DNA of 64,000 bases from a virus. Shown here one piece after another: positions 45,086 through 50,066 of the stretch. A program made the translations under genes and the position numbers. The stretch lies in the IMG/VR virus record IMGVR_UViG_3300020034_000004, positions 1-64,000 of that record; one strand, 5' to 3'. Within the stretch, counting starts at the first letter, position 1. Each line of letters begins with the position of its first letter. The notes beneath the pieces were generated by a model, which was not told where the DNA came from, did not search any database, and was given only the letters and a program-made list of their open reading frames with translations.

Positions 45086-46174
45086 TCAGATTCTACCGGC
45101 TGAGAAATCCGCTAGGACTCTTGGAGCCGCTGCATCAAATCCAACGAAGTCCATCATGATTCCTGGCATCGTTGGGTCCGCAATTGTGAACTCAGTACCA
45201 GCAAAAGCAACTACAGCTAGTCTTGAGTCGCGACCAGAAGTCTGACGATACTTAACTAGGGACTGTGCTGGCTTCTCTGGCCCGGCCCAAGTTTCGTTAT
45301 CGGTAAATACCATGAATGTATCAATGTTCTTGTTCTTCTCACGTGCGTGACGCATTGGCGCAGAACAATCAGTACCGCCTCCACTAAAGCGGCTAATTTT
45401 TTCCTTCACTGTTTCCAAAGAGTCGCGGTCAGAGACATTGACTGTCTTGACTTTCTCCACGTAAGTGCCAAAAGCATTGATTTCAACATATGGCTCTGTA
45501 CGCAGAGTAACCATTGCCATTACTGCAGCAGCCCCGGCGTAGTCCATACCAACCAGACCAGCAGGAGCACCCCACGTCATGGACGCGGAAGTGTCAATGC
45601 TAATCATTGTGCGCTTGTTGGCAGGTTCAATTGTCTGGAAGGCGCTATAGAAACCATCTTCCAAGGCACCCAGAACTTTAGCGTTAACTGCCCATTCGCG
45701 ATGACGAACTCCATAACCTCCCTGCGCGAGCGGACCTTTACCATAAATACCCAATGCGTTTGCGTAGGCAACTGGATGAACTCGACCATTGATAATTCTC
45801 TCTTCGTTGGCCAGAGCCTGAGCCACATCGCCAGCGAACTTCAAATCATCAAACGCACCAATCTTAGCGAAACGAGTTACATTTCGTAAAAGTGCAGTTT
45901 GTCCCAATGCTCCATCGTAGAATAGAGTCTTCCAGACCTCTGCTTCTTTTAGGAACTGAGTTGGAACTGCTTCCCATGGAAGGTTCTTATGAATCCTCAA
46001 TGCATTCAGAACTTCTGACACATTCTGCGCAGACTGAACCATCTGAAATCCATGCAAAATCTCAGGAGCATCTTTAGAAATCTCTCCCTTAAGGATAAAG
46101 TCTCCCACCCTTGGGTTTATACCCTTCGGATGAGCTAGTCTAAACAAATCGGCGTGTCGCCATGTGTTACTCAT
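45086..46174 (-). CDS. Ro60/TROVE protein, C-terminal part (rest of TROVE and vWA domain)
   Basis: W.H.DLFRLAHPK, ALLRN, DTSASM MIDAS, GGTDC, FTDNETW, GFDAAAP. Confidence 0.92.
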   Translation of the reverse strand: MSNTWRHADLFRLAHPKGINPRVGDFILKGEISKDAPEILHGFQMVQSAQNVSEVLNALRIHKNLPWEAVPTQFLKEAEVWKTLFYDGALGQTALLRNVTRFAKIGAFDDLKFAGDVAQALANEERIINGRVHPVAYANALGIYGKGPLAQGGYGVRHREWAVNAKVLGALEDGFYSAFQTIEPANKRTMISIDTSASMTWGAPAGLVGMDYAGAAAVMAMVTLRTEPYVEINAFGTYVEKVKTVNVSDRDSLETVKEKISRFSGGGTDCSAPMRHAREKNKNIDTFMVFTDNETWAGPEKPAQSLVKYRQTSGRDSRLAVVAFAGTEFTIADPTMPGIMMDFVGFDAAAPRVLADFSAGRI

Positions 46175-46333: not shown

Positions 46334-46885
46334 TTAGACAGTGCGTGACCTATACTTCACGGCTTGATAAGCCAACTGCTCAGGAGTCTTTGATTCATAC
46401 CATCCTGCTACCGCTGCCCTCTTGGAACGACCCCAGCCACCAAATGCCTTGACGTAAGATGCGAACTCGAATAGATGAGTAGAAGTACGAACTACCTTAT
46501 TTACCGCCGCGCGAGCGTATGCCTTGTCCTGACCTTCAAAGAAGACCAATGCAAGAGTAAAGATAGTAGGTGACTGCTTCGCTGCGCGGTTGTTGACTGA
46601 TACGTCAACAACGGTATCGACAACCTCACGCTCATTGATTTTAATCATTTCCTTAACAAAGTCAACATTCTGCTTCGTTAGGTCTGATTCACCAACGTAA
46701 TAGGTGCCTGAATCGGTACCCAGAATAAGAAATCGTTCCAACCTGTCCTTATCTGATACCTTGAACACAAACCCACCGGCACTGTTTAAGACTTCGTCAG
46801 TCCTGCCTGGTGTGCGCTCGCTCTGTGGTGTAGAACCCTTACGGTTACGCTGAGTAGCGGCGGTACGTGTTAATGCGTTTGACAT
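46334..46885 (-). CDS. Ro60/TROVE protein, N-terminal part
   Basis: NSAGGFVF, RFLILGT..GTYY, RT.THLF.F, GWGR, LAYQAVKYR. Confidence 0.92.
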   Translation of the reverse strand: MSNALTRTAATQRNRKGSTPQSERTPGRTDEVLNSAGGFVFKVSDKDRLERFLILGTDSGTYYVGESDLTKQNVDFVKEMIKINEREVVDTVVDVSVNNRAAKQSPTIFTLALVFFEGQDKAYARAAVNKVVRTSTHLFEFASYVKAFGGWGRSKRAAVAGWYESKTPEQLAYQAVKYRSRTV

Positions 46886-46920
46886 AATATTTCCCTTTCG
46901 GCTCATTCGCTATATGAGCA
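46886..46920 (-). promoter_or_regulatory. Hairpin and RBS leader, copy 1
   Basis: TGCTCA-TATAGCGAA-TGAGC-CGAAAGGGAAATATT-ATG. Confidence 0.7.
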
Positions 46921-47660: not shown

Positions 47661-47751
47661 CGGAAGCGGGGTGGTTTCGAACCCCCAAGGGCCATAAGCC
47701 TCGCTCGCTTTCAAGGCGAGTGCCGTCGTCCAAAATTCGGCTTGCGCTTCC
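47661..47751 (-). tRNA. tRNA-Ser(UGA)
   Basis: CTCGC-CT-TGA-AA-GCGAG, long arm, G73. Confidence 0.88.
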
Positions 47752-47926: not shown

Positions 47927-48051
47927 TTGAGGATATGTTATAGAAATCGAGTTTTTAACGCTCTTCCATTAAGCTACAGACCGAAGTCCAGTGGGATTCG
48001 AACCCACATCTCTCTTTTGACATAAGATAATCGAATTCATTCGACCCTCAA
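47927..48051 (-). ncRNA. yrlA: Y RNA, YrlA type
   Basis: GAGGGTCGAATG...GATTATCT; T-arm GTGGG-TTCGAAT-CCCAC, TGGAC-TTCG-GTCTG, D-arm GCTT-AATGGAA-GAGC; AACATATCCTC. Confidence 0.9.
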
Positions 48052-48636: not shown

Positions 48637-48671
48637 ATTGGGTTGGTTTGAGAAACCATTTCCTAAAACAG

Positions 48672-48745
48672 TGCGGATGGTGGGATTCGAACCGACGCGC
48701 TCTTGTATCCAAAACAAGCAGGCTGCCCTACACCCACAATTCCAT
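48672..48745 (-). tRNA. Degenerate tRNA-Pro(UGG)
   Basis: CTTGT-TT-TGG-AT-ACAAG; poor acceptor and D pairing. Confidence 0.5.
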
Positions 48746-48756
48746 ATTACCTCAAG

Positions 48757-48828
48757 TCGGGTACCCCAGGGTCGAACTGGGTTTCTTCTGTTCCCAAAAC
48801 AGACGGATTACCGTCTTCCTCGTACCCG
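48757..48828 (-). tRNA. tRNA-Pro(UGG)
   Basis: CGGGTAC/GTACCCG; TCTGT-TT-TGG-GA-ACAGA. Confidence 0.9.
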
Positions 48829-48844
48829 AAACCGTTTATTTTTA

Positions 48845-49280
48845 TAGTGGCTAACGTCTTAACGGCTTTCACCGCTCCATCCACTGTTGTGAGCAACCTA
48901 CGCTATTGATAAATTTAGAATAAATCATCTACGTTGGCGATTAATCTGCTCTGAACTCACAAGTCACAAAGTAGAATCTGATTCCAAGGATTGGCTACCT
49001 CGTCGGCTACACGGTACCGTCAGACTATTAACTTTTCTCATCTACTAAGAATAAAGTGAGAGGAAGGGTGCTACCTTCACGCGGGGGGAGACCTTAGCAT
49101 GTAAGATTACCCCACGACCATTCGTTTGCCGCTAAGCACAGATTCAACAAGTCGCTAAACTTGCCTCCTAGTCTCACCGCATTAGCCTAACTAGGGTACT
49201 TCTGCCGAACGTGCATTACGAGCTACGTCTCCGACACTCGCATTTCTGCCACTCTCAGACGAAGGTGCTACCTTCGTCTT
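48845..49280 (-). ncRNA. Large structured ncRNA candidate between tRNA-Trp and tRNA-Pro
   Basis: No credible ORF; many helices; repeated GAAGG-TAGCA-C hairpins; tRNA-like 5' domain. Confidence 0.6.
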
Positions 49281-49282
49281 TG

Positions 49283-49353
49283 CACCCGACGAGAGATTCG
49301 AACTCTCACGCTAGAGTTTTGGAGGCTCTGCGACTCAACCTACGCTGTCGGAT
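49283..49353 (-). tRNA. tRNA-Trp(CCA)
   Basis: AGAGC-CT-CCA-AA-ACTCT. Confidence 0.85.
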
Positions 49354-49515
49354 ATAGGTCTTTCGACCACATTTACTACTCTATCACATCTTCATGCATC
49401 ATGTCAAGATTCATATCTTCCATAATCTCTTGGTATTCTTCTGTCCATACCCCGGAAATCAGATTCTCACCAAGAACCATTACTACGTCTATATTAGCAT
49501 CTGCTGTTGGCATTG

Positions 49516-49902: not shown

Positions 49903-49975
49903 AGGTCTCATAACGGTTTTCATATCGTCACCACCCAGCCAAATGGAAGGATGTGCTAATTACACCGATGAAACC
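49903..49975 (-). ncRNA. Degenerate tRNA-like element
   Basis: GGTTTCA/TGAGACC acceptor, GTG-TAATTAG-CAC D-arm, aberrant anticodon and T arms. Confidence 0.4.
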
Positions 49976-50066
49976 AAAGCACGGTGGCCTGCTGTCTTCC
50001 GACCCTGAACCTTTTCCGTACTTTTATATCTTAGCACATCACTCAAGCGATGTCAACTTCAATATT

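Follow-up and report, generated by a model that had tools for sequence, protein, structure and literature searches.

The tRNA array of a soil phage

The window, i.e., the whole stretch of 64,000 nucleotides analysed here, was taken from an IMG/VR virus record of 97.5 kb with an estimated completeness of 74%, and DNA of this phage has been found again in soil metagenomes. The cultured phages closest to it, judged by RIIA similarity (approximately 31%), are Streptomyces phages from the family Stanwilliamsviridae. ARAGORN predicted 29 tRNA genes and a tmRNA in the window, all on the minus strand, as are the RNA elements, the Ro60 ORFs and the promoter-like site at 49378-49407 described below. The RNA stretch studied here is the entire spacer between two of these genes. 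Directly 5' of it lies tRNA-Trp(CCA) (49282-49353), found by ARAGORN and given a weak score of 21.9 bits by the Rfam tRNA model, and the next gene 3' of it is tRNA-Pro(UGG) (48756-48828), recognized by both ARAGORN and the Rfam model. This normal tRNA-Pro gene adjoins a second tRNA-Pro(UGG) (48671-48737; Rfam tRNA score 38.7 bits), which is unusually short (67 nt) and has its anticodon at position 27.

A promoter-like site, TTGACA-N18-TAGAGT (49378-49407), is located in front of tRNA-Trp. The window has 30 copies of the more general motif TTGACA-N16-19-TANNNT, compared with 4.3 ± 1.9 in shuffled sequences, and 24 of the 30 are on the gene strand, mainly the minus strand; none is found inside the spacer between tRNA-Trp and tRNA-Pro. 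The surroundings include a split Ro60 gene made up of two ORFs approximately 160 nt apart (45086-46174 and 46334-46906), one of them covering the N-terminal part of the TROVE domain and the other the rest of TROVE together with the vWA domain. The same neighbourhood also encodes an RNA ligase together with an RlaP-type nucleotidyltransferase. Between the tRNA genes upstream of the split Ro60 gene there are two weak matches, a YrlA-like RNA (47941-48037; 28.9 bits over the full model) and a tRNA-Sec-like one (47662-47751; 34.4 bits), and the same weak pair is present in the phages Blueeyedbeauty and Annadreamy. In addition, the region just upstream of tRNA-Gln (49947-50040) matches the full model of the bacterial small SRP RNA (RF00169) with a score of 36.4 bits (E 7.9e-5; cut-off 40 bits), and is possibly a phage-encoded 4.5S-like RNA.

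In a preliminary description the spacer had been portrayed as an ornate non-coding RNA of about 435 nt in a phage tRNA cluster, with a tRNA-like 5' domain and a helical 3' domain, and an Rfam scan and an alignment had been suggested as checks. The RNA is genuine by its fold, homology and covariation: positions 49053-49281 are a real, conserved folded RNA gene in a tRNA operon of a soil phage. All the helices listed in that description are present in the sequence where they were placed, and it was right in seeing no ORF, the longest ones on the RNA strand of the stretch being 25 and 27 amino acids. The size of about 435 nt is not supported, because there is no evidence of conserved structure in the 3' half. 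In the following, 49053-49281 (229 nt) is called the core and the 224 nt between the core and tRNA-Pro (48829-49052) the tail.

The core fold and its relation to manA

The core reaches a minimum free energy of -84.2 kcal/mol, a stability not attained by any of 200 dinucleotide shuffles (z -2.82). The GC fraction amounts to 0.515 for the core and 0.402 for the tail, compared with 0.422 for the window and approximately 0.56 for the flanking tRNAs. The unconstrained minimum free energy structure of the core has the layout of manA RNA. Indeed, the Rfam scan proved to be the decisive check, since the whole manA model (RF01745, positions 1-192) matched 49053-49278 with 42.1 bits and an E-value of 2.2e-9 (3.2e-8 in an 11-kb scan). 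This score is below the curated gathering cut-off of 55.2 bits, and manA was not returned for the window in an Rfam scan at the gathering threshold.

The cmscan alignment covers the complete manA consensus architecture, a P1 hairpin and a closing stem with four enclosed elements in the same order. The P1 hairpin is followed by the closing stem with its GAGUG...GAA junction, a hairpin with UAAUG, the multi-stem domain, a long hairpin interrupted by an internal loop and a final hairpin that begins with GGUA. The conserved letters of manA, which are GGGAGUGaCUGAA..., UAAgG, GGUA in the last loop and CCuCCCaC at the 3' end, have their counterparts in GAGAGUGGCAGAA, GUAAUG, GGUAGCAC and CCUCUCAC of the window. 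Both RNAs are phage-borne, but the P4 interior of the window RNA is enlarged (81 nt compared with 27-46 nt), its P1 hairpin has the loop UAGCA in place of the GAcg type that is usual in manA, and it comes from a soil phage of the Streptomyces type related to Stanwilliamsviridae, whereas manA is found in marine cyanophages or Photobacterium. For 15 years manA has been catalogued as a candidate riboswitch of marine origin, with no ligand known. The new element is thus a sub-threshold, enlarged manA variant inside a tRNA operon of a soil phage related to Streptomyces phages, which extends the manA fold to soil phages of this type.

Relatives of the core were obtained by searching viral contigs with the motif GAGTGGCRGAA...GTAAYGCAC, derived from the conserved junction. 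A second motif gave 11 matches in metagenome contigs, of which L021 alone is real. With R1, a covariance model for which the window sequence was the only input, the RNAs of two uncultured phages, L012 (IMGVR_UViG_3300032227_001426) and L021 (Ga0114970_10068796), scored 78 bits, and the RNA of L010, which corresponds to Streptomyces phage Annadreamy, scored 27.5 bits (E 1.5e-7). By blastn the L010 RNA is 100% identical to the records of both Annadreamy and Blueeyedbeauty (L001). The Annadreamy RNA as the query gave identical sequences in Limpid and Beuffert and 86-92% identical ones in Faust, Sham and TunaTartare, the last three scoring 80-93 bits with the later model R2 (80-95 bits for the Streptomyces phage RNAs). 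The RNA is unannotated in all seven of these phages, i.e., Annadreamy, Blueeyedbeauty, Limpid, Beuffert, Faust, Sham and TunaTartare. Its helices are those of the window RNA, with compensatory changes, and its neighbourhood likewise contains tRNA genes, YrlA and Ro60, but it is a compact RNA of 162 nt with a small P4 (27 nt inside, compared with 81 nt in the window). It is also located upstream of tRNA-Trp, between tRNA-Gln(CUG) and tRNA-Trp (e.g., NC_048719, 65456-65617), whereas the window RNA is downstream of tRNA-Trp. L012 and L021 are the closest to the window in sequence and share its enlarged three-way P4 as well as the conserved junction GUGGCAGAAAUGC...UGUCG....CGUAGC...UAAUGCAC. Two forms of the family can be distinguished, a compact one of 162 nt in the Streptomyces phages and an enlarged one of 217-229 nt in the window, L012 and L021.

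In a small scan against Rfam, the Annadreamy RNA also matched manA (45.2 bits, E 1.5e-9), and the L021 RNA gave no manA match. Because the scores are below the cut-off and L021 is unmatched, the link to manA is made by two sub-threshold matches and by transitive homology. A 63-kb Rfam scan of L001-L003 missed manA because of the search filters, although the same RNA reaches approximately 45 bits in the small scan, and the same filter effect is seen in the RF01745 search of the full record of the window, which returned 0 candidates. With the homology and the fold considered together, the core is very probably an enlarged, sub-threshold relative of manA.

Other searches delimit the family. No match to GenBank phages was found by blastn or megablast with the stretch and its surrounding 10 kb, and none by nhmmer with 446 nt against nine Ro60-bearing phage loci. 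A first look at Mildred21, Bmoc, MeganTheeKilla and five Ro60 phages, with a filter that may miss weak copies, showed no copy of the RNA. Prokaryote genomes were scanned twice, first without a match and then with 40, nearly all of the latter being chance matches in coding DNA, with L062 (13.5 bits) and L045 as the only related-looking ones. The motif GAGUGGCRGAA...GUAAYGCAC is also found in L013, L014, L015, L045 and L062, all uncultured phage or MAG contigs. The four of these compared with model R2 (L013, L014, L015 and L062) do not fit it, and L014 also displays loop-to-distal complementarity; the five may be further manA-like variants.

For the covariation test, seven sequences of three lineages were aligned with model R2; the alignment is fitted to the model structure, and the model was seeded from the fold of the window itself. 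Standard pairs are formed in 98.0% of the alignment cells, compared with 39-46% when the 3' partners are slid by 1-3 columns, and 39 of the 61 pairs change on both sides, compared with 3-9 in the slid controls. The observed values were reached in none of 500 shuffles, and compensatory changes are present in every core helix.

The enlarged manA-type fold (49053-49281) comprises a P1 hairpin, the closing stem P2, P3/P3b, the three-way P4 domain, P5 and P6. The P1 hairpin GACGAAGG-UAGCA-CCUUCGUC (49258-49278), as well as the outer stem P2, had been recognized from the window sequence and both are supported by covariation. In P1, seven of the eight pairs change on both sides and all sequences are 100% paired, and in P2, where UGAGAG (49252-49257) pairs with CUCUCA (49057-49062) and closes the fold, G-C and A-U pairs are exchanged among the homologues. 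The 5' strand of P2 is followed by the junction UGGCAGAAAUG (49241-49251), nearly invariant in the seven sequences, and by the P3b hairpin GCGAG...CUCGU (49218-49241; 3/5 pairs changing on both sides), which has a 14-nt loop. The P4 domain (49119-49211) has the stem CGUUCG/CGAAUG, helix 5 of the alignment, with five of six pairs changing on both sides, and encloses the enlarged three-way junction of P4a, P4b and P4c; helices 6-8 are common to the window, L012 and L021. In the P5 hairpin CGUGGGG...CCCCGCG (49080-49116) the double changes affect six of the seven pairs. P6, GAAGG-UAGCAC-CCUUC (49063-49078), is likewise a true hairpin with three of its five pairs changing on both sides, and the tips of P1 and P6 are the same 12-mer, GAAGGUAGCACC. 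The earlier designation of P6 as a T-like arm has to be abandoned, the loop varying from 6 to 10 nt among the homologues and being variable in sequence, without T-loop letters.

The tRNA-like 5' domain was not borne out as a whole. The corresponding explanation, a tRNA-derived or tRNA-mimicking RNA with a large insert in the anticodon position and possibly a Ro60 partner like YrlA, would agree with the location of the RNA in an island of tRNA, Ro60, YrlA and RNA ligase genes, with the several arms inside the outer stem and with the resemblance of CGUAGCUCG to a segment of the tRNA D-arm. However, the domain received no score from ARAGORN or from the Rfam tRNA model (RF00005), and YrlA (RF02553) was likewise unmatched at E <= 10 in 49053-49281. 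A separate YrlA-like RNA is present at 47941-48037, the P6 loop is not of the T-loop type, and no copy of the RNA was seen in the first look at the five other Ro60 phages mentioned above. The D-like arm GGCA/UGUC does exist as a complementarity, but it competes with P3/P3b, which is backed by covariation and by the Rfam consensus and displaces it. A tRNA mimic is therefore considered highly improbable.

GOLLD and ROOL are large RNAs of phages or prophages, often found beside tRNA genes and reported to form RNA-only multimers. The window RNA had been proposed to be either a compact relative of these or a member of a wholly new class, and it does share with them the context (a phage, beside tRNAs) and a similarly ornate fold. 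Neither model matched at E <= 10 in the Rfam scan of 48700-49450, which was also devoid of tRNA and YrlA matches in the RNA stretch, and there is no similarity in sequence or structure to these much larger, unrelated families. The full-length manA match (42.1 bits) and the reciprocal homology explain the fold instead; homology to GOLLD or ROOL is ruled out by the manA match, and the alternative as a whole, including a new class, has hardly any probability left. A functional analogy, i.e., assembly of RNA only, may nevertheless hold for the window RNA.

Loop contact, gene context and proposed release of the RNA

The loop of P3b contains GGAGAC (49227-49232), which is complementary to GUCUCC (49087-49092) in the 3' internal segment of P5, with 134 nt enclosed. 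This pairing, previously drawn as a stem around 134 nt, is real and covarying as far as the aligned sequences tell: it is GGAGAC:GUCUCC in the window, GCAAUC:GAUUGC in L012 and CUAUG:CAUAG in the compact RNAs of the Streptomyces phages, with only 4 bp kept in L021. The partner invariably occupies the 3' end of the interior of P5, and the probability of such a match by chance in shuffled loops is approximately 0.03 for each lineage. The nested stem itself did not survive. Because GGAGAC is in the loop of the covarying P3b, the contact would be either a pseudoknot or an intermolecular kissing interaction, for which the covariation is the same. A "pseudoknot?" was drawn for manA by Weinberg (PMC2864571), and the covarying pairing of 5-6 bp between the P3b loop and P5 of the window may correspond to it. 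In a cryo-EM study of 2026, RNAs of the manA family were reported to form pentamer-based decamers and a 60-mer cage via kissing loops in vitro (bioRxiv 10.64898/2026.07.01.735769). By analogy, the covarying contact could be a self-association interface of the manA kissing-loop kind.

The gene context of the RNA is of three kinds. tRNA genes border the RNA on both sides in the window and in five Streptomyces phages, where its start follows the same AAAG linker after the 3' end of a tRNA. The Streptomyces phage RNA constitutes the exact spacer between tRNA-Gln and tRNA-Trp, ending at the first base of the latter. L012 and L021 differ in being outside a tRNA array and in having their own transcription signals: a promoter-like TTGACA-N18-TAGGTT site approximately 7 nt before P1 sets the same 5' end, and the RNA ends at an intrinsic terminator, beyond which there is a convergent ORF. 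The 5' end is consequently at the same place in all three contexts, and their agreement indicates a free-standing RNA.

These observations bear on the possibility of a cis-regulatory, riboswitch-like element controlling downstream expression. Rfam types manA in this way, and the known manA RNAs are mostly located in potential 5' UTRs (Weinberg et al., 2010; PMC2864571). In the window, by contrast, tRNA-Trp and tRNA-Pro enclose the RNA, which is not followed by any ORF that has a ribosome-binding site. tRNA genes come next on the same strand both here and in the five Streptomyces phages, and the RNA of L012 and L021 ends in the terminator, with the convergent ORF beyond it. An RNA bounded by tRNA genes or by its own promoter and terminator argues against a role as a gene switch, and this explanation is regarded as very unlikely, slightly less so than a tRNA mimic.

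The reading considered likely is that of a stand-alone manA-type RNA gene, released by tRNA processing and possibly self-associating. In this scheme the promoter-like site at 49378-49407 would give rise to a joint transcript of the tRNAs and the RNA. Maturation of the 3' end of tRNA-Trp would generate the 5' end of the RNA three bases before P1. The 3' end would arise from a cut by RNase P at tRNA-Pro, after which exonucleases would trim away the weakly structured tail as far as P2. The product would be a free RNA particle instead of a gene switch, associating with itself via the covarying loop contact. The separate parts of the scheme differ in strength: release by tRNA processing, deduced from established tRNA biology, is rather probable, and oligomerization of this particular RNA, argued from analogy, is a tentative proposal.

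Homologues are carried by SEA-PHAGES isolates that are in culture and amenable to genetics (Annadreamy, Blueeyedbeauty, Faust, Sham and TunaTartare, growing on Streptomyces griseus, S. lividans and S. mirabilis), and for that reason deletion, Northern blots and purification of native particles are ordinary experiments.

The 3' tail

The tail is outside the conserved fold. The helices described for a 3' domain are present as complementarities, but the fold of the 228-nt 3' stretch is no better than that of shuffled sequences (z -0.61; 50 of 200 shuffles as good), and its pieces have z values of -0.3, -1.2, -2.0 and -0.8, with the value of -2.0 belonging to the last small hairpin. No Rfam family matched the tail at E <= 10, a decayed tRNA in it thus being without a model match, and no homologue of the tail was found by blastn, nhmmer or Rfam. 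A second manA core was sought in the tail with R1 and the filters off and was not found. A small protein was also discarded, the only ORF being one of 25 amino acids with no Shine-Dalgarno motif seen before it. The tail is absent from the Streptomyces phage homologues, in which the RNA ends 4 nt after P2. It is probably a spacer that is not conserved, or an appendage specific to this lineage, and would be transcribed along with the core.

The tetranucleotide UAGC occurs nine times in the 453 nt of 48829-49281, compared with 2.45 ± 1.42 times in dinucleotide shuffles, none of 2000 reaching nine. Four of the motifs are in the tail, a number reached in 22 of 2000 shuffles. The complementary GCUA(A) is found in two other loops of the same 453 nt. 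In this one sequence, the UAGC motifs and the GCUA(A) loops may represent a set of loop-loop contacts.

The whole 453-nt transcript between the tRNAs could therefore be imagined as one RNA of two domains, the tail adding loops of the GGUAGC type and hence valency or regulation. Such an accessory role is conceivable because of the UAGC excess with its four copies in the tail, because the tail hairpin GAGG-UAGCCAAU-CCUU resembles P1 and P6, and because L012 and L021 carry 3' extensions of approximately 130 nt with a conserved loop. The z value of the last tail hairpin and the lack of a promoter-type motif or terminator between the core and the tail point in the same direction. On the other hand, the tail as a whole folds like its shuffles and has a background GC fraction of 0.40, it has no homologue, the L012 and L021 extensions are unlike it, and the Streptomyces phage RNAs stop at the next tRNA. 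A further argument comes from a near-identical phage of a second soil sample. When its contig (X3) is compared with 48751-49356, the flanks diverge by just a few per cent, and 49243-49285 and 49050-49075 are retained. The core interior of X3 (162 nt, compared with 167 nt in the window) is less than 80% alike, as is its tRNA-Trp, which is of the same length, and 544 unlike nucleotides replace the tail and tRNA-Pro (298 nt in the window). The difference looks like a cassette-type replacement inside the tRNA array. The two-domain RNA is accordingly rated as unlikely, and so is a functional domain in the tail.

A broader view would be that manA-type RNAs are produced by soil actinophages (Stanwilliamsviridae and relatives) in the form of free particles, which RNase P and the maturation of tRNA 3' ends cut out of tRNA operons, and that in the window the enlarged core and the 3' appendage studded with GGUAGC loops build a higher-valency RNA-only assembly working with the adjacent genes for RNA repair and quality control (Ro60/YrlA, RNA ligase and tmRNA). 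This view is more doubtful still than the two-domain RNA.

The 3' extensions of L012 (approximately 7790-7671, minus strand) and L021 (approximately 615-496, minus strand) each contain a hairpin, followed by the intrinsic terminator, in which the stems are entirely different and the loop UUACCUCCUU is kept. This loop resembles the anti-Shine-Dalgarno end of 16S rRNA.
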